This document shows, piece after piece, positions 1,893 through 15,831 of a DNA stretch of 64,000 nt. The notes under the pieces are model-generated. The model saw nothing but the letters and a program-made list of their open reading frames with translations. It was not told where the DNA came from and did no database searches. How positions within the stretch are numbered: the first letter of the stretch is position 1; each line of letters starts with the position of its first letter. The DNA is from an uncultured Actinomycetota bacterium (GTDB lineage Bacteria; Actinomycetota; Actinomycetes; JACCUZ01). Both the position numbers and the translations under genes were made by a program. Location: NCBI GenBank assembly GCA_963728425.1, contig CAVSKC010000014.1, positions 167,389 through 231,388 on the forward strand. Reading direction: 5' to 3'.

Positions 1893-2802
1893 GTGCCCTG
1901 CGCCGCCACGACCTCTACGCTCGCACCCGTGCCCCTGCGCCCGGTCAGCCCCGTCCCGGCCGGCATCCTCTGCGTCATCGGTGGTGCCGAGGACCGCACC
2001 GGGTCGCGGGTCGTGCTGCGCGAGTTCGTCCGGCTGGCCGGCGGCGACGGGTGCCGGCTCGCGGTCGTGGCCACCGCATCCTCGCTCGGCGAGGAGATCC
2101 TCGACTCGTACGACGTGGTGTTCCGCGAGCTGGGTGCCGGCGACGTACTGCGGCTGCGACCGGAGTCGCGGACGGATGCGGACGACCCCGCACTCGCCGC
2201 CCGGCTCGGCGATGTCGACGCCGTGTTCATGACCGGGGGCAACCAGCTCAAGCTGACCCAGGTGGTCGATGGCACCGCCTTCGGCGAGGCGGTGCGGGCG
2301 GCGTACCTGCGCGGCGCCCTGGTGGGCGGCACGTCGGCAGGGGCCAGCGCCGTCAGCGAGCACATGATCGCCTTCGGGGACGAGACGGACACCCCTCGGC
2401 AGGGCGTGACGGCGTCGGCCGCCGGGCTGGGCCTTCTGCCGGACGTCATCGTCGACCAGCACTTCTCGCAGCGGAACCGCTACGGCCGGCTGCTGTCCTT
2501 GGTGGCGCGGTCGCCGCGACTGCTCGGCATCGGCATCGACGAGGACACGGCGGCCGTCGTACGCGGGGGGCACCTGCTCGAGGTGACCGGCAGCGGCTGC
2601 GTGATCGTGGTCGACGGGTCGTCCGCGGTGAGCGACGCGCACATGGCCGAGCTGGGCGCGCCGCTGCTCGTGTCCGGGGTCCTCGTGCACACGCTGCCGG
2701 CCGGAGCCCGGTTCGACCTGACCACCCGTCGTCTGGTCGACTTCCACGAGGAGAACCTCGCCCACCAGATCGCCAACCGCCCCGCGGAGGACACGACAAT
2801 GA
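1893..2802 (+). CDS. cphB: cyanophycinase (peptidase S51)
   Basis: Within ORF 1506..4223 I see ILCVIGGAED, MTGGNQLKL, GGTSAGASA (Ser nucleophile context) and VDQHFSQRNRYGRL. The start is GTG at 1893 or 1929. There is no in-frame stop before 4223, so the given end is the TGA of the ATGA junction, which lies in another frame (see finding). Confidence 0.8.
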
Positions 2803-5568
2803 GCCCCGAGACGCGCACTACGAGCGGCCAAGCCGGACCTCGCGATCCTGCAGACGCGTGTCTACCGGGGGCCGAACCTGTGGTCGTACGAGCCGGCCGT
2901 CCACCTCGTGGTCGACCTCGGCTCGCTGGAGGACTACCCCACCAACACCATCCCCGGCTTCGTCGACGGGCTGCTCGAGGCGCTGCCCGGCGTGGGGCTG
3001 CACTCGTGCTCCCGCGGTCACCGCGGCGGCTTCCTGGAGCGGTTGAAGGAGGGCACCTGGCTCGGGCACGTCGCCGAGCACACCGCCCTGCAGCTGCAGA
3101 AGGAGGCCGGCCACGAGATCCGCCGTGGCAAGACCCGGGGCACCGGGGTCCGGGGCCAGTACAACGTCATCTACGGGTACGTCGACGAGCAGGTCGGCCT
3201 CGCCGCCGGCGCCCTTGCAGTCCGCCTCGTCAACCACCTGGTCCGCGCCGACCCGGAGTTCGACTTCGACGCCGAGCTGGAGCGGTTCCTGCTGCGGGCC
3301 CAGCGGACCGCATTCGGGCCGTCGACCCAGGCGATCCTGGACGAGGCGGTGTCCCGCGACATCCCGTGGCTGCGGCTCAACGAGCACTCGCTGGTGCAGC
3401 TCGGCCAGGGCGTCCACCAGCAGCGGATCCGGGCCACGATGACGTCGAACACCTCGGCCCTGGCGGTCGACATCGCGGGCGACAAGGAGCTGACGACCCG
3501 GCTGCTCGCCGCCGCCGGACTGCCGGTGCCCCGCTCGGAGTCGGTGCGCACGGTGGACCAGGCCGTCAAGGTCGCCAACCGGATCGGCTACCCCGTCGTG
3601 TGCAAGCCGCTGGACGGCAACCACGGCCGCGGCGTGATGCTCAACCTGCAGGACGCCGACGAGGTCCGCGCCGCCTTCCCGACCGCGCAGGAGGAGTCCC
3701 GCCGCGGCTGGATCGTGGTCGAGTCGTTCGTCACCGGCAAGGACTACCGGGTCCTCGTCATCGGGGGCCGGATGGTGGCCCTGGCCGAGCGAGTACCGGC
3801 GCACGTCGTCGGCGACGGCCTTCGCACCGTGCTCGAGCTGGTCGACGAGACCAACGCGGACCCGCGCCGCGGCGTCGGCCACGAGAAGGTGCTGACCCGG
3901 ATCAAGGTGGACGACGCCGCGGTCGAGCTGGTGCGCGAGCAAGGCTTCGCGATGACCGACGTACCGCCCGACGGCGTCCAGGTGAAGCTCACGCTCACCG
4001 GGAACATGTCCACCGGCGGCATCTCGATCGACCGCACCCTCGAGGCGCACCCGGACAACGTCGAGATCGCCGAGGAGGCCGCCCGGGTGGTCGGCCTGGA
4101 CGTGGCCGGCATCGACTTCATCTCCCCCGACATCGCCGAGCCCGTGCGCGAGACCGGCGGCGCCATCTGCGAGGTGAACGCGGCGCCGGGGTTCCGGATG
4201 CACACCCACCCGACGGTTGGTGACGCGCAGTTCGTGGCCAGCCCGGTGCTGGACTCGCTGTTCCCCGCCGGCCGGCCGAGCCGGATCCCGATCGTGGCCG
4301 TCACCGGCACCAACGGCAAGACGACGACGTCACGGATGATCGCGCACGTGTTCAAGGGCATGGGCCGCAAGGTCGGCATGACGTCGACCGACGGCATCGT
4401 GATCGACGAGCGGCTGGTGATCCGGTCCGACGCCAGCGGGCCGAAGTCGGCCCGGATGGTGCTGCAGAACCCGCGGGTCGACTTCGCGGTGTTCGAGGTC
4501 GCCCGCGGCGGCATCCTGCGCGAGGGTCTCGGCTACCAGCGCAACGACGTCGCCGTGGTGCTCAACGTCGCACCGGACCACCTCGGGATGCGCGGCATCG
4601 ACACCCTCGAGCAGCTGGCCGAGGTCAAGCAGGTCGTCGTCGAGGCCGTGCCGCGGGACGGGTTCGCCGTCCTCAACGCCGACGACCCGCTGGTGCGCGG
4701 GATGCGCCGCCGCTGCTCCGGCGAGGTGGTCTGGTTCACGATGGCCGAGGCCGGCAGCGAGGTGCTCGAGATGGTCGAGGACCACTGCCGGCGTGGTGGC
4801 CGCGCGGTGCTGCTCGAGCGCAGCGACCTCGGCGAGATGATCGTGATCCGGCACGGCCGCCGCGCCATGCAGCTGGCCTGGACCCACCTGCTGCCGGCCA
4901 CCTTCGGCGGCAAGGCGAAGATGAACGTACAGAACTCGCTGGCCGCCGCCGGCGCCGCCTTCGCGGCCGGCGCGCAGCTGCACGACATCCGGCAGGGCCT
5001 GCGGACGTTCACCACGTCGTACTACCTGTCCCCCGGCCGGCTGAACCAGATCGACGTCGGCGGCACGATGGTCATCGTCGACTACTGCCACAACGCCCCC
5101 GGGATGCGGATGCTGGGCGACTTCGTCGAGCAGCTGGCCGAGAGCGCCCAGCAGACCTCGGAGCTGGCCAAGCCGCAGCGGGTCGGCGTGGTGGCCACCG
5201 CCGGCGACCGACGGGACGAGGACATGCGCGAGCTGGGCGCGGTCGCGGCCGAGCACTTCGACGTCCTTGTGGTCCGTGAGGACGAGGCCCTGCGCGGCCG
5301 GCCGCGCGGTGCGGTTGCGGCTCTGGTGGCAGACGGCGCGCAGGCCCGGATGGCCGAGGGCGCCCGCTGCAAGCAGGTCGAGATCGTGCTGGAGGAGATC
5401 CCGGCGGTGCACCACGCGATGGCCCGCGCCAACCCGGGTGACCTCGTCGTGCTCTGCGTGGACAAGCACGGCCCGGTGCTCGCCGAGCTCGAGTCGATGT
5501 CGCACCAGGCGCAAGCCGGCGCCCACGTCGGCGAGGCGGTGGGCGACCCCGACGCGGCCACGTCGTGA
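2799..5568 (+). CDS. cphA: cyanophycin synthetase CphA (N-domain, ATP-grasp G-domain, Mur-ligase M-domain)
   Basis: ORF 2908..5568 has the ATP-grasp region GYPVVCKPLDGNHGRGV and the Mur-ligase P-loop VAVTGTNGKTTTSRM. The conserved N-terminal strand ILQTRVYRGPNLWSYEPAVHLVVDLG lies in the same frame upstream of the first canonical start (GTG 2908). The likely ATG at 2799 is in another frame, so there is a frame break at about 2805-2845. Confidence 0.9.
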
Positions 5569-6152
5569 GCCGCCGCTACCTCGTCCTGCACGGCTGGCAG
5601 AACCACCGGCCCCCCGAGCACTGGGAGTGGCTGCTGGTCGACGCGCTGCGTGCCCGCGGCGAGCAGGTGCTCTACCCCCAGCTCCCCGCGGCGGACCACC
5701 CGGTCCTCGACGACTGGCTCGACGTCTTCGCCGGCGAGTGGCGGCAGATGGGCGGCGGCGAGCGAGTCGTGGTCGCGCACAGCCTGTCCTGCCTGCTCTG
5801 GCTGCACGCCGCCGAGCGCGGACTGGTCGACCCGCCCGCAGACCGGGTGCTGCTGGTGGCGCCGCCGAGCCCGGCCGTCACGTCGTCGTACGACGACATA
5901 GCCGGCTTCCTGGCACCGGAGGACCCGGCGTCGGTGTGGGCCTCGTCGCTTGCGACGGTGCGGCTGGTGGCCTCCGCCGACGACCCCTACAGCACCGAGG
6001 GCACCGCGGACGCGCTGTACGGCGGCCCGCTGGGCCTGGACAGCGAGATCCTGCCCGGGGCCGGCCACGTCACGATCGAGGACGGCTTCGGGCCCTGGCC
6101 CGCGGTGCTGGACTGGGCGCTGGACCCGGTCACCCGGTTCGGTTCCGCCTGA
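5565..6152 (+). CDS. YdeN/RBBP9-family serine hydrolase (alpha/beta fold)
   Basis: 195-aa ORF with LVLHGW, nucleophile context VVAHSLSC, ASADDPY and GAGHV (Ser-Asp-His order typical of this family). Its GTG start overlaps the cphA stop (GTGA). Confidence 0.75.
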   Translation: MSRRYLVLHGWQNHRPPEHWEWLLVDALRARGEQVLYPQLPAADHPVLDDWLDVFAGEWRQMGGGERVVVAHSLSCLLWLHAAERGLVDPPADRVLLVAPPSPAVTSSYDDIAGFLAPEDPASVWASSLATVRLVASADDPYSTEGTADALYGGPLGLDSEILPGAGHVTIEDGFGPWPAVLDWALDPVTRFGSA

Positions 6153-6187
6153 CCGGGAGCGCTCGGCGGGCGCTACGGTCAGTAGTC

Positions 6188-7337
6188 ATGGCGCCGCTCC
6201 CACCCCCGCCCGCGCAGTCGGTCGGCTTCTGCCGGTCCGCCGACGGGGTCCGGATCGCCTACTCCCGCCTCGGCCAGGGGCCGCCGCTGGTCGTGTCCAC
6301 CTGCTGGCTGAGCCACCTCGAGTACGACCTGCAGAGCCCGGTCTGGCAGCACTTCGTCCGGGGCCTCGGTGAGGTGTCCTCGACCGTGCGGTACGACGAG
6401 CGCGGCTTCGGCCTGTCCGACTGGGATGTCACGGACTTCTCCTTCGAGGCCCGGCTGAACGACCTGGAGGCGGTGGTCGACGCCGCCGGGCTGGAGCGGT
6501 TCGCCCTGCTCGGGATGTCGCAGGGCGGTCCGGTCGCGGTCGCGTACGCCCACCGGCACCCGGAGCGGGTCAGCCGGCTGGCCCTGCTCGCCAGCTATGT
6601 GGCCACGGTCGGACAACGGCTCCGAGACCATGCTGATGGAGGAGACCTTCACCAAGATGATCGAGGTCGGCTGGGCCCGGCCGGAGGGCCGCTTCCGGCG
6701 GGTCTTCACCGATGCGCTGATGCCCGGCGCGAGCCCGGAGCAGATGACCTGGGTCGACGAGCTGATGCGACGGTCGACGAGCACCGAGAACGCGGTCGCG
6801 TTCCGCCAGGCCCGGCTGAACGTCGACGTGACCGACCTGCTGCCGCAGCTCCAGCTGCCGACCCTGGTCATGCACTCCCGCGGCGACCAGATGAACCCGA
6901 TCGCGGGCAGCCGGCGGCTGGCTGCGGAGATACCCGGGGCCCGGCTGGTCACGCTGGAGTCGGACAACCACGTGCTGCTGGACGGCGAGCCGGCCGCCGA
7001 GGTCTTCTTCGCCGCCATGGCCGACTTCCTGGCACCTGACGCGGCGGCTGCGGCAACCGGCCTACCGGTGGAGGTGCCGCGCCAGTTCGGGGCGCCCGAT
7101 CCGGCCGCCCTCGCGCAGCTGACCGGGCGGGAGCGCGAGGTGCTCGACCTGGTCGCGGCCGGCCGGGAGAACCGGGAGATCGCCGAGGCGCTCACCCTCA
7201 GCGTCCGCACCGTGGAGCGGCACCTGCAGACGGTCTACCGCAAGCTCGGGCTGACCGGCTCGGCCCAGCGGACCGCAGCCGCCGCCCTGGTGCGCGGTGC
7301 GGGCGACTACGCGCGCGCCGCCACAACCGGCGGCTGA
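6188..7337 (+). pseudogene. alpha/beta-hydrolase-domain / LuxR-type HTH fusion regulator; one frame break
   Basis: The N-terminal hydrolase fold (LLGMSQGGPVAVAYAHRHP) lies in the frame of ORF 5267..7039. The continuation and C-terminal LuxR HTH (LTGREREVLDLVAAGRENREIAEALTLSVRTVERHLQTVYRKLG) lie in ORF 6597..7337. The frame switches near ~6605. Confidence 0.8.
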
Positions 7338-7412: not shown

Positions 7413-8266
7413 ATGAGGAGTTCCCGCATGACCATGACCACCGACCAGCTCGAGGCCGACCGCGCGCTCAAGGCCAAGCACCGCGCGATGTGGGCGCTGG
7501 GCGACTACCCCGCCGTGGCCCGCGACATCGTCGGCGACCTCGGCCCGATCCTGGTGCAGGCCAGCGGCGTCGGCCCGGGCGAGCGGGTGCTCGACGTAGC
7601 CGCCGGATCGGGCAACGCCAGCATCCCCGCGGCCGCTGCCGGCGCCTCGGTCATCGCCTCGGACCTGACCCCCGAGCTGTTCGAGACCGGACGCAAGGCC
7701 GCCGCCGAAGCCGGCGTCGAGGTCGACTGGCAGACGGCGGACGCCGAGGCGCTGCCCTACCCGGACGCGTCCTTCGACACCGTCCTGTCCTGCCTCGGGG
7801 TCATGTTCGCCCCGCACCACCAGGCCGGCGCCGACGAGCTGGTCCGGGTCCTGCGTGCCCGGGCGGCACCCTCGGCCTGCTCAGCTGGACCCCGGAGGGC
7901 TTCATCGGGCAGATGTTCGCCACCATGAAGCCGTACGCGCCGGCGCCCCCGCCCGGGGCGCAGCCGCCGCCGCTGTGGGGCAACGAGGAGCACGTCCGAG
8001 CCCTGCTCGGCGACCGCGTCACCGAGGTCTCGGCGTCGCGGGCGTCCCTCATCGTCGACGAGTTCGCGACGCCGGGCGACTTCCGCGACTACTTCAAGGC
8101 CAACTACGGCCCGACGATCGCGGTCTACCGGGCGATCGCCGACGACCCGGAGAAGGTCGCCGCGCTGGACCGCGAGCTCGAGGAGCTCGCCCGTCGGTTC
8201 GACCGCGGTGACAGCCGCTGCGTGCTCGAGTGGGAGTACCTGCTGCTCACCTGCGAGCGCACCTGA
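7413..8266 (+). pseudogene. class I SAM-dependent methyltransferase; one frame break
   Basis: SAM motif I VLDVAAGSGNAS is in ORF 7413..7928. The motif LRPGGTLGLLSW and the C-terminal part are in the frame of ORF 7490..8266. The frame switches near ~7858. Confidence 0.8.
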
Positions 8267-8548: not shown

Positions 8549-10258
8549 TCAGGGCGCCGCGGCGGCCAGGACCTTGGCCCGGATCTCGTCCGGGCCGTCC
8601 GCCGTGGCGCCCGCCGAGGCCAGCCAGGCGGCGATCTCGCCCCGCTCGGCGTGGCACATGACGCCGATCACGTCGCCGGGGACGGCCTGGTCGACGAGCG
8701 CCTGCAGCCCGGCCAGCTCGGTGGCATGCACCGGTACGTCGTGCACGCCGACCGCCGCGGCGCCCTCCTGGAGCAGCTCGGCGAGCTCGTCGGCGTCGCG
8801 GCCCCGCAGGTAGTGCTCCTTGTGCCCGATCACGACCTGGTCGGCGCCGCGGGCGGCCATCTCCCCCACGGCGCGGATGATCTCGTCGGTGCGGTCGCCG
8901 GGGGTGCCCATCACCAGCCGCACCGACGCGTCCGGTCCGCCCAGCCCGCGCAGCACCTCGAGCAGGGCCGCCACTCCTGCCTCGTTGTGGGCCAGGTCGA
9001 CCACGACGGTCACGCCGTTCAGCTCGTAGACGTTCATCCGGCCCGGGTTGTCCTCCGACCCGGGCCGGAACGACCGCAGCCCGTCGACCACCGCGGCCCG
9101 GGGCAGCCCGACGCCGAGGCCGGCGCCCACCGCCGCCAGCGCGTTCTCCACGTTGACGTGCGAGAGGCCGGCCAGGGTCATCGGCACGTCCACCACGGGG
9201 ACCAGCGGGTCCGGCTCGACCCGGGGCTCGAGCACGGTGATGTCGCCGTCGATCAGCGTCACCGCCCGACCACCCTCGTCAAGCACCTTCCGCAGCGCCG
9301 GCGACCCCGGGTCCCGGGAGAAGACGCACACGTTGGCAGTGACACCGAGCCGCATCGCGAAGGTCCGGGGGTCGTCGCCGTTGAGCACGACCCAGCCGCG
9401 GGCCCGGGTGACGCGGGTGACCACCGCCTTCACCTCGGCGAGCTGGTCGACGGTGTCGATGCCCTGCTGCCCGAGGTGGTCGGCGCTCACGTTCGTCACG
9501 ACCGACACGTCGTTGTGCACGACGCCGAGGCCGCGCAGCAGGATCCCGCCGCGCGCCGTCTCGGTGACCGCGAGCTGCACCCGCGCGTCGTCGAGCACCC
9601 GGCCGGCGCCGCTCGGCCCGGAGTAGTCACCCGGCTCCACCAGCTCGCCGTCGATGTACACCCCGTCGGTCGACGACCAGCCGACGACCAGGCCGGCACA
9701 CCGGCCCATCCTGGCCACCATCCGGGACGTCGTCGTCTTGCCGTTCGTGCCGGTGACCGCGACGACTGGGACGTGCGGGCGCCGGGCACCGGGTGCCTCA
9801 CCGAGCTCGGAACGGCGCACCAGTGCGGCCGCCGCGGCCAAGACGGCGTCGACGTCCTCGGCCGGCAGCGCGTCGAGCACCCCGGCGACCGCGTGGCCGA
9901 GGGCCTGGGCCCGGTCGCGGTGCCGCCAGGGAAACGCGACCACGGTGCGGTGCAGCTCGGCCGTCGGCCGGCTGCGGACGGCAAGCCGGCTGGTGCCGGA
10001 CTCGCGAGCCACCCGGCGTACGACGGCAACGACGACCCGAAGCGCGAACCGCTGCCGCAACCCCGTCCCCGCAGCGCCCGGTCGGGCCGCGGCGAGGCCC
10101 AGCGACTGGCCCACCTCGCGGGCCGAGGCGTCCGGCAGCGCCAGCAGGGTCGAGATGTCGAGCGTCAGCTTGACCGCGGCGCGGGGGAAGTAGAGGTTCG
10201 CGCCCTCGAGCACCCGCAGCTCGACCAGCGACGGCCGCACGGCGTCCAGGGGAACCAA
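8549..10258 (-). CDS. CphA-like ligase: cyanophycin-synthetase N-domain plus Mur-ligase M-domain, lacking the ATP-grasp domain
   Basis: Intact 569-aa ORF. The N-terminus LVELRVLEGANLYFPRAAVKLTLD parallels CphA ILQTRVYRGPNLWSYEPAVHLVVDLG. The P-loop VAVTGTNGKTTTSRM sits at about residue 170, against about residue 500 in CphA. ARGGIL, NVSADHLGQQGIDTVDQLAEVK, LNGDDP and GDRTDE all mirror the CphA M-domain in this window. A TTG start lies 6 nt after the inhA stop. Confidence 0.8.
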   Translation of the reverse strand: MVPLDAVRPSLVELRVLEGANLYFPRAAVKLTLDISTLLALPDASAREVGQSLGLAAARPGAAGTGLRQRFALRVVVAVVRRVARESGTSRLAVRSRPTAELHRTVVAFPWRHRDRAQALGHAVAGVLDALPAEDVDAVLAAAAALVRRSELGEAPGARRPHVPVVAVTGTNGKTTTSRMVARMGRCAGLVVGWSSTDGVYIDGELVEPGDYSGPSGAGRVLDDARVQLAVTETARGGILLRGLGVVHNDVSVVTNVSADHLGQQGIDTVDQLAEVKAVVTRVTRARGWVVLNGDDPRTFAMRLGVTANVCVFSRDPGSPALRKVLDEGGRAVTLIDGDITVLEPRVEPDPLVPVVDVPMTLAGLSHVNVENALAAVGAGLGVGLPRAAVVDGLRSFRPGSEDNPGRMNVYELNGVTVVVDLAHNEAGVAALLEVLRGLGGPDASVRLVMGTPGDRTDEIIRAVGEMAARGADQVVIGHKEHYLRGRDADELAELLQEGAAAVGVHDVPVHATELAGLQALVDQAVPGDVIGVMCHAERGEIAAWLASAGATADGPDEIRAKVLAAAAP

Positions 10259-10264
10259 CCGTCC

Positions 10265-11032
10265 TTACGCGCCCATGGCGTGCACGCCGCCGTCGACGTG
10301 CACGATCTCCCCCGTGGTGCGCGGGAACCAGTCCGACAGCAGGGCGACACAGGCCCGCGCGGCCGGCTCGAAGTCGGACACGTCCCAGGCCAGCGGTGCC
10401 CGGCTGGACCAGACGTCCTTGAGCTCGTCGAAGCCGGGGATCGACTTGGCCGCCGTGCTCAGCAGCGGACCGGCGGCCACCAGGTTCACCCGGACACCTT
10501 CCGGTCCGAGGTCCCGGGCCAGGTAGCGCGACGTCGACTCGAACGCGGCCTTGGCCACGCCCATCCAGTCGTACTTCGGCCAGGCCAGCGACGCGTCGAA
10601 GGTCAGGCCGACCACCGAGCCGCCGGTCGGCATCAGCGGCTGGGCCGCCACGGCAAGGGCCTTGAGCGAGTACGCCGAGATCTGCAGCGCCGTCGCGACG
10701 TCGGACCACTCGGTCTTGAGGAAGTTGCCGCCCAGCGCCGCCTCCGGGGCGAAGCCGATCGAGTGCAGCAGCCCGTCGAGGCCGTCGACGTGCTCGCGGA
10801 CCCGGTCGGCGAGGGCGTCGAAGTCCTCCGCGTTGCTCGCGTCCAGCTCGATCACCGGCGGCGCGGTGGGCAGCCGCTTGGCGATCGTCTGGGTGATCCG
10901 CATCGTCCGGCCGAAGGACGTGAGGACGAGCTCGGCACCCTCCTGCTGCGCGATACGTGCGACGTGGAACGCGATGGAGGACTCCATCAGCACCCCGGTC
11001 ACGAGGATCCGCTTGCCGTCCAGGATGCCCAT
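10265..11032 (-). CDS. inhA: NADH-dependent enoyl-ACP reductase (InhA/FabI)
   Basis: 255-aa ORF with LDGKRILVTGV..SSIAFH, HSIGF, WMGVAKAALES and ALLSDW, closely resembling mycobacterial InhA along its full length. Confidence 0.9.
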   Translation of the reverse strand: MGILDGKRILVTGVLMESSIAFHVARIAQQEGAELVLTSFGRTMRITQTIAKRLPTAPPVIELDASNAEDFDALADRVREHVDGLDGLLHSIGFAPEAALGGNFLKTEWSDVATALQISAYSLKALAVAAQPLMPTGGSVVGLTFDASLAWPKYDWMGVAKAAFESTSRYLARDLGPEGVRVNLVAAGPLLSTAAKSIPGFDELKDVWSSRAPLAWDVSDFEPAARACVALLSDWFPRTTGEIVHVDGGVHAMGA

Positions 11033-11773
11033 CTAGTGCCCCATTCCTAGTCCGCCGTCCACGGGTATCACCGCACCCGTGATGTACCCCGCGTCCTCGC
11101 TGGCGAGGAACCGCACGACGTTCGCGACCTCGTCCACCGAGGCGAACCGGCCGAGCGGGATCTGCCCGCGGTACGTCTTCTGCAGGTCATCGGGCAGCTC
11201 GGCCGTCATGTCGGTCTCGACGAAGCCGGGCGCCACCACGTTGTAGGTGATGCCGCGCGAGCCGAGCTCGCGGGCGAGCGACCGGGCCAGGCCCACCAGG
11301 CCGGCCTTGGACGCCGCGTAGTTGGTCTGCCCCGCGGAGCCGAGCAGCCCGACCACCGAGGAGATGAAGACGACCCGGCCGCGGCGCAGCTTCAGCATCC
11401 CCTTGGAGGCACGCTTGGCGACCCGCCACGAGCCCGCGAGGTTGGTGGCCACGACGGTGCCGAAGTCCTCCTCGGACATCCGCATGATCAGCTGGTCGCG
11501 GGTGACCCCGGCGTTCGCGACCAGGACCTCGACGGGTCCCTGCTTCTCCTCGACCTCCGCGAAGGCGGCCTCGACCGACTCGGGGTCGGTGACGTCGCAG
11601 CGGACGCCGGCCAGTCCCTCGGGCGGCTGGCCGGACCGGTAGGTGACGGTGACCCGGTCGCCGCCGGCCGCGAGGGCGCGGGCGATGGCCAGGCCGATGC
11701 CGCGGTTCCCGCCGGTCACCAGCACGGACCGGCCGGAGGGGGCCGCGGTGGGCTCGGATGGCTGATCGGTCAC
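11033..11773 (-). CDS. fabG: 3-oxoacyl-ACP reductase FabG (MabA-like SDR)
   Basis: 246-aa ORF with VLVTGGNRGIG, NAGV, the SDR catalytic context YAASKAGLVG and PGFVETDM. It lies immediately upstream of inhA, as in the mycobacterial fabG1-inhA operon. Confidence 0.9.
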   Translation of the reverse strand: MTDQPSEPTAAPSGRSVLVTGGNRGIGLAIARALAAGGDRVTVTYRSGQPPEGLAGVRCDVTDPESVEAAFAEVEEKQGPVEVLVANAGVTRDQLIMRMSEEDFGTVVATNLAGSWRVAKRASKGMLKLRRGRVVFISSVVGLLGSAGQTNYAASKAGLVGLARSLARELGSRGITYNVVAPGFVETDMTAELPDDLQKTYRGQIPLGRFASVDEVANVVRFLASEDAGYITGAVIPVDGGLGMGH

Positions 11774-12905: not shown

Positions 12906-14414
12906 GTGCCTGAGATCGACGCGGCCTTCACCGACCTGCCGCTGCGCCGGCTCGCCGACGCCGCGCTGAGCCGGGCCAAGCCCTCGGTGCCGAGCACGCC
13001 GACATCCGGATCGAGCGCATCAAGGACTCGCGCCTGAGCCTGCACGACGCCCGGCTGGACGGCACCAGCGACGGCGAGGACGTCGGGTTCGCGGTGCGGG
13101 TGGTGCTACGACGGCTCGTGGGGGTTCGCCTCGCACGTCGACCTGACGCCGGAGTCGGCGGAGCGGGTCGCCGAGCAGGCCGTCGAGGTGGCCAAGGTCA
13201 GCCGGCCGCTGTCGACCCAGCGCGTCGAGCTCGCCGACGAGCCGGCGTACGGCGACGTGACCTGGGTATCGCCGTACGAGGTCGACCCGTTCTCGGTGCC
13301 CGACTCGGACAAGGTCTCGCTGCTGGCCGACTGGAGCTCGGGCCTGCTGGCGCACGACCTCGTGGCGCACGCCGACGCATCCGTGCACTCGGTGCTCGAG
13401 AACAAGTTCTACAGCCGACCTGGCCGGGACGACGACGACCCAGCAGCGGGTCCGCATCCAGTGCCAGCTCGAGGCCGTCGGCATCGACAAGGAGTCCGGC
13501 CGCTTCGACACCATGCGCACGCTGGCGGCACCGGCCGGGCGCGGCTGGGAGTACCTGACCGGCAGCGGGTACGACTGGGCGGCCGAGCTCGACGAGCTGC
13601 CGGAGCACCTGACCGAGAAGCTGCGGGCGCCGTCGGTCGAGGGCGGTGACTACGACCTGGTCATCGACCCGACCAACCTCTTCCTCACCATCCACGAGTC
13701 GATCGGGCACGCGACCGAGCTCGACCGGGCGCTCGGCTACGAGGCCAACTACGCCGGCACGTCGTTCGCGACCTTCGACCAGCTCGGGACGCTGAAGTAC
13801 GGCTCCCCCGTGATGAACGTGACCGGTGACCGGGCCGCCGAGCACGGGCTGGCCTCGATCGGGTGGGACGACGAGGGCGTCGCCGGGCAGCAGTGGGACA
13901 TCGTCAAGGACGGCCTGCTCGTCGGCTACCAGCTCGACCGCGCCGATGGCCCGGCTGAAGGGCCTCGGCCGGTCCAACGGCTGTGCGTTCGCCGACTCCC
14001 CCGGGCCACGTGCCGATGCAGCGGATGGCCAACGTGTCGCTCCAGCCGGCCGCTGGCGGGCCCTCGACCGAGGAGCTCATCTCCAGGGTCGACCGCGGCA
14101 TCTACGTCGTCGGCGACAAGAGCTGGTCGATCGACATGCAGCGCTACAACTTCCAGTTCACCGGGCAGCGGTTCTTCAAGATCGAGAACGGCCGGCTGGC
14201 CGGCCAGCTGCGCGACGTCGCCTACCAGGCGACGACCACCGACTTCTGGGGCTCGCTGGAGGCGGTCGGCGGGCCGGAGACCTACTACCTCGGCGGCGCG
14301 TTCAACTGCGGCAAGGGCCAGCCCGGCCAGGTCGCGGCGGTCAGCCACGGCTGCCCGGCGACACTGTTCCGCGGCGTGCGGATCCTCAACACCCAGGCGG
14401 AGGCGGGCCGATGA
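12906..14414 (+). pseudogene. tldD: TldD-family metalloprotease; about 5 frame breaks
   Basis: The protein is spelled across the GTG 12906 frame and ORFs 13188.., 13513.., 13826.. and 13983..14414. It has the HESIGHATELD metal site, WDDEGV, RSNGCAF, MANVSLQP, GIYV and the C-terminal GGAFNCGKGQP. Frame switches lie near ~12985, 13107, 13418, 13946 and 14007. Confidence 0.85.
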
Positions 14415-15831
14415 GCACCACGACAGTCACCGGCGTGAAGGCGCAGGAGGTCGTCGAGCGCGCACTGCAGCTGTCGACCAGCGACGGCTGCATCGTGATC
14501 GCGCAGGAGTCCAGCGAGGCCAACCTGCGCTGGGCGGCGAACACCCTCACCACCAACGGCGTGATGCGCGGCCGGCAGCTGACCGTCATCGCGACGATCG
14601 GCGGCAGCGAGGGAACGGCCACCGGCGTCGTGTCGCGCAGCAACGTCGGCCTGGACCAGGTCGAGTCGCTGGTGCGCGCGGCCGAGGAGGCTGCCCGCAC
14701 CGGCCGCTCCGCAGAGGACGCACGGCCGCTCATCACGCCGGACCAGCTGCCGGCCGGTGCGCAGGGCTGGGAGGAGGAGCCGGCCGAGACGTCGATCGGG
14801 GTCTTCGGCGCAGCTCGCCTCGACGCTCGGCGAGGTGTTCCTCGACGCGCGGGCCGCCGGCCGCGAGCTGTTCGGCTTCGCCGAGCACCAGCTGCACACG
14901 ACGTACCTGGGCACCTCGACCGGCGTGCGGGTGCGGCACGCCCAGCCCACCGGCCGGATCGAGGTCACCGGCAAGACCGCCGACTGGTCCCGCTCCTCCT
15001 GGGTCGGGCAGAGCACCCGCGACTTCAGCGACATCGACATGGCCGCCGTGGACGCCGAGCTGGCCCGCCGCCTCAGCTGGGCGAAGCGCCGGGTCGACCT
15101 GGACGCCGGCCGGTACGAGACGCTGCTGCCGCCGAGCGCGGTCGCCGACCTGATGGCCTACATGTACTGGACCGCAGTGGCGCGCGACGCCGACGACGGC
15201 CGCACGGTGTTCAGTCGGACAGGGCGGCGGCACCCGGGTCGGCGAACGGCTCGCCGACCAAGCCGCTGCGGGTGTGGAGCGACCCGGCGGCCGAGGGCCT
15301 CCAGTGCGACCCGGTCGTGTTCGCGACGTCGTCCGGCTCGTCGCAGTCGGTCTTCGACAACGGGCTGCCGCTCAGCGAGACCGACTGGATCGCGGACGGC
15401 GAGCTCAGGGCGCTCATCCAGACCCGGCACTCGGCCGAGCTGACCGGACTGCCGATGACACCCGGGCGTCGACAACCTGCTGATGGGCTCGGCCGACGCG
15501 ACCCGCGGGCTGGACGAGATGGTCGGCCGACACCCAGCGCGGCCTGCTGCTGACCTGCCTCTGGTACATCCGCGAGGTCGAGCCGCAGACGCTGCTGCTC
15601 ACCGGGCTGACCCGGGACGGCGTGTACCTGGTCGAGGGCGGCGAGGTGGTGGCCGAGGTGAACAACTTCCGCTTCAACGAGAGCCCGGTCGACCTGCTGG
15701 GCCGGCTCACCGAGGTGGGCCTCACCCAGCGCACCCTGGCGCGGGAGTTCGGCGACTACTTCACCCGTTCGGCGATGCCGACCTGGCGGGTCGGCGACTT
15801 CAACATGTCCTCGGTCAGCAAGGCGAGCTGA
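14411..15831 (+). pseudogene. pmbA: PmbA/TldE-family protein (TldD partner); about 5 frame breaks
   Basis: The ATG overlaps the tldD stop (ATGA). The protein is spelled across four frame segments and ends in ORF 15622..15831 (YLVEGGEVVAEVNNFRFNESPVDLL). Frame switches lie near ~14812, 15213, 15262, 15467 and 15530. Confidence 0.8.

Follow-up and report, generated by a model that had tools for sequence, protein, structure and literature searches.

A CphA relative without an ATP-grasp domain beside a cyanophycin operon

We analyzed a 64,000-nucleotide (nt) stretch of DNA from an uncultured Actinomycetota bacterium (GenBank assembly GCA_963728425.1, contig CAVSKC010000014.1, positions 167,389 to 231,388), hereafter called the window, which has a G+C content of ~72 to 75%. 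An intact open reading frame in this window encodes a 569-amino acid relative of the cyanophycin synthetase CphA, composed of a CphA-type N domain and a Mur-ligase module (M domain) but devoid of the ATP-grasp (G) domain that stands between these parts in CphA1. We refer to it as the N+M gene. It is convergent with cphA1 and the adjoining cyanophycinase gene cphB, at the distance of about 3 kb that a preliminary description of this DNA had given (the stop codons of cphA1, at 5568, and of the N+M gene, at 8549, are 2980 nt apart). The features are listed in Table 1.

The fabG, inhA, and N+M genes follow one another on the minus strand and leave no space for a promoter between them. As described before, the TTG start codon lies 6 nt past the inhA stop and is preceded by an AGGA, which overlaps the TAA. 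An alternative start is a GTG located six codons inward; with either start, the gap between inhA and the N+M gene does not exceed 24 nt. Judging from the sequence, cotranscription of the N+M gene with fabG-inhA is likely in the lineage of the window. On the other side, the body of cphA1 encodes a protein that scored 1154 bits with the NCBIfam model TIGR02068 (cut-off 850), is 91% identical to the CphA1 of the related locus L081, and has the Cx19HxxEH motif, which reads C...HVAEH in the translation.

Table 1. Features of the window and of related loci (positions refer to the window unless a locus is named).
Feature	Position	Strand	Basis or description
N+M gene	8549..10258	-	Intact 569-amino acid open reading frame, TTG start; CphA-type N domain and Mur-ligase module, no ATP-grasp domain
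N domain (residues 1-160)	9779..10258	-	Divergent CphA N domain, basic, without Cx19HxxEH; hhalign, Foldseek, invariant residues
Mcore, ATP-binding core (residues 161-400)	9059..9778	-	Pfam Mur_ligase_M 168-379; 56% identity to CphA1 over first 140 amino acids
P-loop G170-T177 (GTNGKTTT), including Lys174	9728..9751	-	Invariant in N+M family and CphA1
D260-H261-L-G, equivalent of SuCphA1 D585/H586	9470..9481	-	Alignment to 7lg5; invariant in N+M family
Mlid (residues 401-569 and stop)	8549..9058	-	Pfam Mur_ligase_C 406-534; GDR(T)DE(I) 454-460, HK-x-x-YLRGR 479-487
Junction of inhA stop and N+M start	10256..10267	-	TAA 10265-10267, 6-nt spacer GGACGG, TTG 10256-10258; AGGA overlaps stop
inhA-type enoyl-acyl carrier protein (ACP) reductase, directly upstream of N+M gene	10265..11032	-	Pfam adh_short_C2, E = 2e-69; 98% identical to L081 orthologue
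fabG-type ketoacyl-ACP reductase, first of three genes	11033..11773	-	Pfam adh_short/KR
cphB, cyanophycinase (Peptidase_S51)	1974..2802	+	Pfam; tblastn with L081 CphB; no in-frame stop in window sequence
cphA1 (N+G+M), convergent with N+M gene	2803..5568	+	Pfam Cyanophycin_syn, ATP-grasp, and Mur ligase domains; first canonical in-frame start 2908
Ser_hydrolase (PF06821, YdeN-like)	5565..6152	+	Pfam; 4-nt overlap with cphA1 stop
M20 peptidase genes of related loci	L012 37-1149; L013 2295-3386; L014 3-932; L015 4283-5362; L021 8302-9357; L083 11098-12264		

The M domain keeps the catalytic motifs of CphA1 but differs at putative substrate-binding positions

Pfam searches with the 569-amino acid protein detected Mur_ligase_M at residues 168 to 379 (59.9 bits, cut-off 24) and Mur_ligase_C at residues 406 to 534 (56.1 bits, cut-off 28.4), and found neither an ATP-grasp domain nor any further family. 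With both domains above their gathering scores and a P-loop (GTNGKTT) at residues 170 to 176, the protein belongs to the Mur ligase superfamily. BLASTP against the CphA1 of the window aligned exclusively the M region, at 39% identity over 418 amino acids (E = 4e-64). Roughly half of the positions had been said to be identical over the first ~140 amino acids of this region, and we counted 79 of 140 (56%). The P-loop, placed earlier at about residue 170 as compared to about 500 in CphA1, begins at residue 170 and at residue 501 (counted from 2803), respectively. The GPN motif and the P-loop are 151 amino acids apart in the N+M protein versus ~480 in CphA1.

TIGR02068 matched residues 160 to 536 with its positions 476 to 849 only; because two thirds of the model are missing from the N+M protein, the score of 378 bits remained below the cut-off of 850. 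A second model, NF010623, gave 334 bits (cut-off 877), and the protein thus does not qualify as a full-length CphA1. It does not fall into any of the characterized Mur-ligase families compared either, a point that the preliminary description had raised as a question: the models of MurE, MurT, MurC, MurD, MurF, and FolC scored 25 to 93 bits against cut-offs of 160 to 1020, MurE being the next best after TIGR02068. Membership in MurE (92.7 bits, cut-off 476), MurT (29.9 bits, cut-off 800), and FolC (43.4 bits, cut-off 163) was ruled out. Like MurE and the other peptidoglycan Mur ligases, the N+M protein has an N-terminal domain for holding the substrate, a middle domain with a P-loop for binding ATP, and a C-terminal domain, and the arginine of the MurE DNPR motif aligns with its invariant R485. 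In contrast to them, its N-terminal domain is of the CphA type rather than UDP-binding domain 1, and its gene is not part of a dcw-type cell-wall cluster. MurT (with GatD) and FolC are likewise members of the superfamily. MurT carries an extra C-terminal domain, to which nothing in the N+M protein corresponds by Pfam.

Next to this overall similarity, 53 conserved positions of the M region are common to the N+M family and 78 CphA1 sequences, including the P-loop, D260/H261, GDR, and RGR. Lys174 in the P-loop is the equivalent of K499 of TeCphA1, whose K499A mutant was impaired (PMC9427784), while D260/H261 correspond to the D585/H586 pair that was mutated to inactivate the M domain of SuCphA1 (PMC9262961). 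The N+M protein therefore has a CphA-type M domain complete with D260/H261 and K174, in addition to the CphA-type N domain described below.

Other positions are fixed differently in the two families. S549 and V616 of CphA1 are replaced by Gly217 and Thr284, respectively, and the GDRRDxD motif of the CphA1 Mlid reads GDR(T/A/P/G)D(E/D)(I/M/L/V) in the N+M family. Thus, R804 and D807, which were invariant in all 23 sampled CphA1s, have given way to T/A/P/G and I/M/L/V. The stretch aligned to DNPR of Escherichia coli MurE differs as well, with (E/Q)D-x-(D/N)-x-RGR in CphA1 as compared to (H/E)K-x-x-Y-L-RGR in the N+M family; here, DNPR aligns with YLR, the invariant Tyr483 occupies the position of MurE N414, and Lys480 is an insertion. 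MurE uses its DNPR residues to bind the incoming diamino acid. By analogy, the changes at this stretch of the Mlid therefore suggest that the incoming substrate may be other than that of CphA1. In addition, the alignment places Arg282 of the N+M protein at E607 of SuCphA1, which is a polymer contact, and the net charge of the M part is -19 in the N+M family versus -6 in CphA1.

The N-terminal region is a divergent CphA N domain without the zinc peptidase motif

The kinship of the N-terminal region to the N domain of CphA, claimed in the preliminary description, turned out to be real, though invisible to BLASTP, Pfam, and plain hidden Markov model (HMM) searches. BLASTP found no N-domain match to the CphA1 of the window. 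Pfam gave no match at E ≤ 10 for the N-terminal 168 amino acids, PF18921 included, and no PF18921 match at E ≤ 1 for ten divergent members of the N+M family, while an HMM of the N domain retrieved only noise (designed helical repeats) from the PDB sequences. When the N-domain profile was searched against 1.84 billion representative proteins, 325 were matched, the full-length ones being 535 to 585 amino acids long, and no protein of CphA1 length was found among the best 150 of the 325. Thus, an HMM-versus-sequence search does not bridge the N-domain types of the N+M family and CphA1.

The two types were connected by a profile-profile comparison. When profiles built from 42 N+M-family and 29 CphA1 N domains were aligned with hhalign, the probability was 95.3% (E = 2.4e-8), with 21% identity over 146 collinear columns starting at a shared RV-x-x-GPN-aromatic strand-loop; the reversed-sequence control reached 0.2%. 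Foldseek agreed with this result: using an AlphaFold model of the N domain alone, with a predicted local distance difference test (pLDDT) score of 91.9, the top 13 PDB matches were all N domains of CphA1 or CphA2 [E = 2.6e-4 to 3.7e-2, template modeling (TM) score 0.52 to 0.59], and unrelated noise followed. Together, these data demonstrate that the N-terminal 160 amino acids are a divergent CphA N domain.

Within the N+M family, conservation is highest in the invariant G(P/A)NLYFPR loop, and the corresponding loop of CphA1 (Y14, I17) packs against the M domain (PMC9262961). By analogy, we regard the N+M family as the N-M unit of CphA1, self-contained and functional there, standing alone. A Cx19HxxEH zinc peptidase motif is present in the N domain of about 80% of CphA1s (PMC9262961). 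In the N+M alignment, the zinc-site helix reads VVAVVRRVARE and the preceding loop has no cysteine; because the motif is replaced, cryptic peptidase activity would not be expected. The domain also differs in charge, with a median of +6 and an isoelectric point (pI) of 11.1 as compared to -2 and pI 6.5 in the N domains of the partner CphA1s from the same genomes. A shorter variant, in which GPN and the P-loop are 117 instead of ~151 amino acids apart, was found in L013 to L016 and in protein P0267. It is missing the segment that corresponds to the region with the cysteine ligand loop in CphA1, and it comes from metagenome-assembled genomes (MAGs) labeled Chloroflexota, Methylomirabilota, and Thermohalobaculum.

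The predicted fold has the reverse architecture of CphA2

With the full-length AlphaFold model (pLDDT 84.6), the best Foldseek matches in the PDB were CphA1 structures (E = 1e-34 to 1e-32, query-normalized TM score 0.70 to 0.75), aligned over ~875 columns in the order N, gap for G, and M, while MurE structures reached only E of about 1e-19. The domain, profile, and fold results thus bear out the earlier characterization of the protein as N plus M without G, the reverse of CphA2.

Compared with CphA1 (7LG5, 7LGJ, 7LGQ, and 7WAE), which is its best match in both sequence and structure and beside whose gene (with cphB) its own is found, the N+M protein has the same N-domain fold, the GPN-aromatic N-M contact loop, a complete Mcore and Mlid, and the P-loop, DH pair, GDR, and RGR. 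Unlike CphA1, it has no ATP-grasp G domain and would thus be unable to extend the Asp backbone; its N domain lacks Cx19HxxEH and is basic rather than acidic, R804/D807 are replaced, and it belongs to a separate sister clade. CphA2 (8FXH and 8FXI) is also a reduced CphA paralogue with a noncatalytic N domain that lacks the zinc motif, and it is among the structural matches of the N domain. However, CphA2 keeps G, has a truncated and inactive M domain, and polymerizes beta-Asp-Arg (PMC10273328), whereas the N+M protein has a complete M domain and no G. In the openly searchable full-text literature, we found CphA1 and CphA2 described but no N+M-type protein, and a 2023 bioinformatics survey of cyanophycin genes makes no mention of an N+M-type gene. 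Thus, the N+M gene is a real, conserved, and apparently undescribed CphA relative.

The N+M gene accompanies cphA1 and cphB across lineages

The search for full-length homologues (561 to 592 amino acids, 64 to 97% identity) yielded more than 100 clusters, annotated either as "Mur ligase family protein" or as "cyanophycin synthetase"; those with a named source are from Actinomycetota MAGs. Three gene models were longer: P0151 (745 amino acids) has a C-terminal TPR_5 domain, P0114 (752 amino acids) carries PF09349 (OHCU decarboxylase) at its C terminus, and P0110 (825 amino acids) is called as a fusion of InhA and N+M, but its InhA portion decays partway along and the model is probably a frameshift artifact.

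We compared the neighborhoods of 25 related loci (L001 to L018, L020, L021, and L081 to L085) with that of the window; L002 and L085 had too little downstream sequence, leaving 23 to be judged. The contig of a relative with 91% identity stops 600 nt past the gene and is thus uninformative about the spacer. In 22 of these 23 loci, cphA1 was found less than 8 kb from the N+M gene, at distances ranging from 26 nt to 7.5 kb. Co-occurrence with cphA, about which the preliminary description had asked, is therefore near-universal. cphB adjoins cphA1 wherever the sequence of the locus extends far enough. The N+M gene and cphA1 are convergent in 21 loci, with gaps of ~85 nt to 7.5 kb, while L083 has both on the same strand as cphB (cphB-x-cphA1-N+M), the N+M gene following cphA1 after 26 nt. 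The loci are labeled Actinomycetota, Chloroflexota, Methylomirabilota, and Thermohalobaculum, and the cultured carriers of the gene pair are Kribbella sp. NBC_00889, Kribbella orskensis VKM Ac-2538, and Terrabacter aerolatus NBRC 106305. By its adjacency to cphA1 and cphB across lineages, the N+M gene qualifies as a putative functional member of the cyanophycin gene cluster.

The linkage to fabG-inhA, to which the preliminary description had drawn attention, is present in the window but is not conserved across the family; it is specific to some Actinomycetota lineages, and the informative linkage is that to cphB-cphA1. fabG-inhA lies upstream of the N+M gene in 15 of 18 Actinomycetota-type loci with upstream sequence (window included), and a tight inhA-N+M junction like that of the window was seen in L001 to L009, L017, L018, L020, L081, L082, and L085. 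The linkage is absent from L010 to L016, L083, and L084, which include all loci labeled Chloroflexota, Methylomirabilota, or Thermohalobaculum. A homologue of Rv1486c is found a few genes past cphB in L081 (20151 to 20876) and L082 (17603 to 18337), where the block reads fabG-inhA-[N+M, cphA1, cphB, His_Phos, SerB]-Rv1486c. The order at the inhA locus of Mycobacterium tuberculosis is fabG1-inhA-hemZ-Rv1486c, and the cyanophycin genes of L081 and L082 thus take the place of hemZ. Because the fabG-inhA...Rv1486c order resembles that locus, the linkage to the type II fatty acid synthase genes is probably inherited synteny with embedded cyanophycin genes and not a functional tie to fatty-acid synthesis.

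An M20 peptidase gene lies beside the N+M gene, or within ~1.4 kb of it, in lineages without fabG-inhA (Table 1). It is divergent in L013 to L015 and codirectional in L012, and no M20 homologue was found in the window. The peptidase could be a dipeptidase of these cyanophycin clusters. Upstream of cphA1 in three loci labeled Burkholderiales or Polyangiaceae, we observed weak second Mur-ligase-like matches of 28 to 31% identity (L060, 7784 to 7999; L076, 4597 to 5136; L066, 2270 to 2794), which may represent a degenerate tandem cphA copy.

The N+M family is a sister clade of the CphA1 M domains

A neighbor-joining tree of the M regions (25 N+M members and 23 CphA1s) was rooted with the outgroups MurE, MurD, and MurC of E. 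coli. All 40 bootstrap replicates recovered the N+M proteins and the CphA1 M domains as two monophyletic sister clades. A recent deletion of the G domain from the adjacent cphA1 was ruled out, since the N+M clade did not branch from within the CphA1 M domains in any of the 40 replicates. The method is distance-based, and a long-branch effect may have influenced where the N+M clade falls.

The CphA1s that have an N+M neighbor form one clade, and the trees of the N+M proteins and of their partner CphA1s match in topology. This indicates, at the level of the sequences, that the pair is old and co-inherited. Differences between the partner CphA1s and the remaining CphA1s are confined to 11 columns of the alignment (the start residue being one), are mostly conservative, and never affect a catalytic motif, so that the partners look fully functional by sequence. 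Compensation for a degenerate partner M domain was ruled out, since the partner CphA1s keep all motifs. With the partner M domains intact, the N+M gene is therefore an addition and does not substitute for an inactive M domain.

Sequence quality and other genes of the window

Within the window, the N+M, inhA, and fabG genes are intact, as is the body of cphA1. However, the CphA reading frame that the preliminary description had drawn from 2799 to 5568 is not a single open frame. The ATG at 2799 belongs to the cphB frame, while the cphA frame has a TGA at 2800 to 2802 and its first ATG, GTG, or TTG at 2908, a start that would remove ILQTRVYRGPN, the conserved first strand of CphA1. The cphB frame (from 1974), in turn, stays open until 4223. 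In relatives, the cphB-cphA1 junction is either a GTGA overlap (L081) or a short gap followed by ATG (L047), and a single A added to ACAATGA in the junction of the window (2790 to 2910) would recreate the cphB stop.

Other genes of the window are also disrupted. As compared to the intact L081 orthologues, SerB (region 189 to 1400) changes frame twice, near 645 and 920, and TldD (region 12906 to 15828) three times, near 13415, 13942, and 14004; PmbA, in the same region, is frame-changed as well. An abhydrolase-LuxR gene (6152 to 7337) is split near 6600, and an S-adenosylmethionine methyltransferase gene (7413 to 8266) near 7900. Both of these genes are absent from L081, where the stop of the N+M gene is 37 nt from the next gene. 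The frame changes, together with the abnormal cphB-cphA1 junction, look like assembly indel errors or gene decay. The 4-nt overlap between cphA1 and the Ser_hydrolase gene recurs in L081 (11738 to 12325; an 84% relative) and suggests cotranscription with cphB-cphA1, as far as gene order can indicate; no Ser_hydrolase gene was found beside cphA1 in the more distant loci examined.

Discussion

We propose that the N+M protein is probably an unrecognized third enzyme of the cyanophycin nitrogen-storage pathway. The form of this proposal that we hold slightly more probable than its negation is that the protein acts as an ATP-dependent Mur-type amide (isopeptide) ligase, working in trans on cyanophycin chains or intermediates together with CphA1 and CphB. 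The N domain and the Mcore would jointly form a polymer-holding groove, as they do in CphA1. After binding ATP, the Mcore would phosphorylate a carboxylate that is still free on the bound chain, most likely at the beta position of an Asp that bears no side chain, and the Mlid would deliver an amino acid, whose amine would attack the acyl-phosphate. Because the groove is much more basic and the residues of the incoming-substrate site differ from those of CphA1, one would expect either a preference for more acidic, under-arginylated chains or the addition of a residue other than arginine. That the protein is active, that cyanophycin is its substrate, and what group it adds is what we infer from the conservation and context described above.

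Several points weigh against this proposal. The substrate is assigned from homology and gene neighborhood only, and in one locus, L010, no cphA1 was found within 7 kb upstream or within the 2.9 kb that make up its full downstream extent. The M site of CphA1 takes only chains with an unmodified C-terminal Asp (PMC9427784); a free enzyme might find too few such chains. The role given to the Mlid residues derives from the analogy to MurE. As to the full-length model, the loop carrying D260/H261 (residues 258 to 268) has a pLDDT below 50, and the whole-chain superposition has a root-mean-square deviation of ~9.5 Å, so that the model does not establish the relative placement of N and M.

A more far-reaching interpretation, which we consider possible but put forward tentatively, is that the N+M protein represents a third class of cyanophycin enzyme with a polymer chemistry beyond that of CphA1 alone, and that it may also keep an ancestral N-core-lid layout, from which CphA1 arose by insertion of the ATP-grasp domain between N and M. 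This would fit the sister position to the CphA1 M domains, the preservation of the N-M contact loop, and the changed residues at the substrate site. Possibilities for such a chemistry are a non-arginine side chain, an extra residue attached where the Arg side chains expose a free alpha-carboxylate, or a C-terminal cap. The alternative of a plain helper, which would perform the M-domain chemistry of CphA1 by adding L-Arg onto the terminal Asp of released chains and thereby speed up synthesis or rescue stalled intermediates, seems to us rather unlikely. The N+M protein is most similar to CphA1 M domains and has all ATP and catalytic motifs in common with them, and the complementation in trans seen between CphA1 protomers shows that a chain can pass from one active site to another (PMC9262961). 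Yet R804 and D807, found in 23 of 23 CphA1s, are replaced at the substrate site of the Mlid, where a Tyr and a Lys specific to the family appear; the polymer groove has turned from acidic to basic; the M domain of the partner CphA1 is already intact; and the split from the CphA1 M domains is deep and not recent. The preliminary description had envisaged decoration of a pre-existing poly-carboxylate or action in trans with CphA; addition of Arg in trans stands as one reading of this, but not as the sole and maybe not as the best one, since the residues that are invariant in CphA1 at the amino-acid site known from MurE are not kept.

A role away from the polymer appears less probable still. Most Mur ligases use small substrates, and the M20 peptidase gene beside the N+M gene (L012 to L015, L021, and L083) hints at dipeptide metabolism, so that the enzyme might join free amino acids into beta-Asp-Arg, a minimal primer, or another short peptide. 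We regard this as improbable, as the protein retains an N domain whose role in CphA1 is to hold the polymer, and as the partner CphA1, equipped with the primer-generating Cx19HxxEH, should not need primers to be supplied. We give very little credence to a ligase of the cell envelope or of fatty-acid metabolism, an idea that springs from the third place in the fabG-inhA operon: the start 6 nt past the inhA stop and the fabG-inhA-N+M order of 15 Actinomycetota-type loci, including the window, speak for it, but the linkage is missing from L010 to L016, L083, and L084 while that to cphA1 persists there, the Mur-family and FolC scores are far under the cut-offs, and the fabG-inhA...Rv1486c order, which matches that of the M. 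tuberculosis inhA locus, points to inherited synteny. Just as implausible to us is a noncatalytic partner that would bind CphA1 or cyanophycin granules as a scaffold or regulator. The basic N domain could indeed dock on the acidic CphA1 (net charge -20), and the M domain of CphA2 sets a precedent for an inactive domain (PMC10273328); however, the P-loop, DH pair, GDR, and RGR are invariant in more than 40 divergent members, which would be unexpected for a dead enzyme.

Cyanophycin biosynthesis has been described with two enzymes, CphA1 (N, G, and M) and CphA2 (N, G, and a dead M), and the N+M protein would be the third. Its gene lies beside cphA1-cphB in soil Actinomycetota and in MAGs labeled Chloroflexota, Methylomirabilota, and Alphaproteobacteria. 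How a Mur-type ligase and an ATP-grasp enzyme came together in CphA1 can be studied in this family as in a natural experiment, and, since cultured strains have the gene pair, the function of the N+M protein can be approached directly. If the enzyme alters side chains or processes intermediates, it could serve as a tool for tailored polymers, and the cyanophycin that these bacteria naturally make may deviate from the Asp-Arg polymer of the textbooks.

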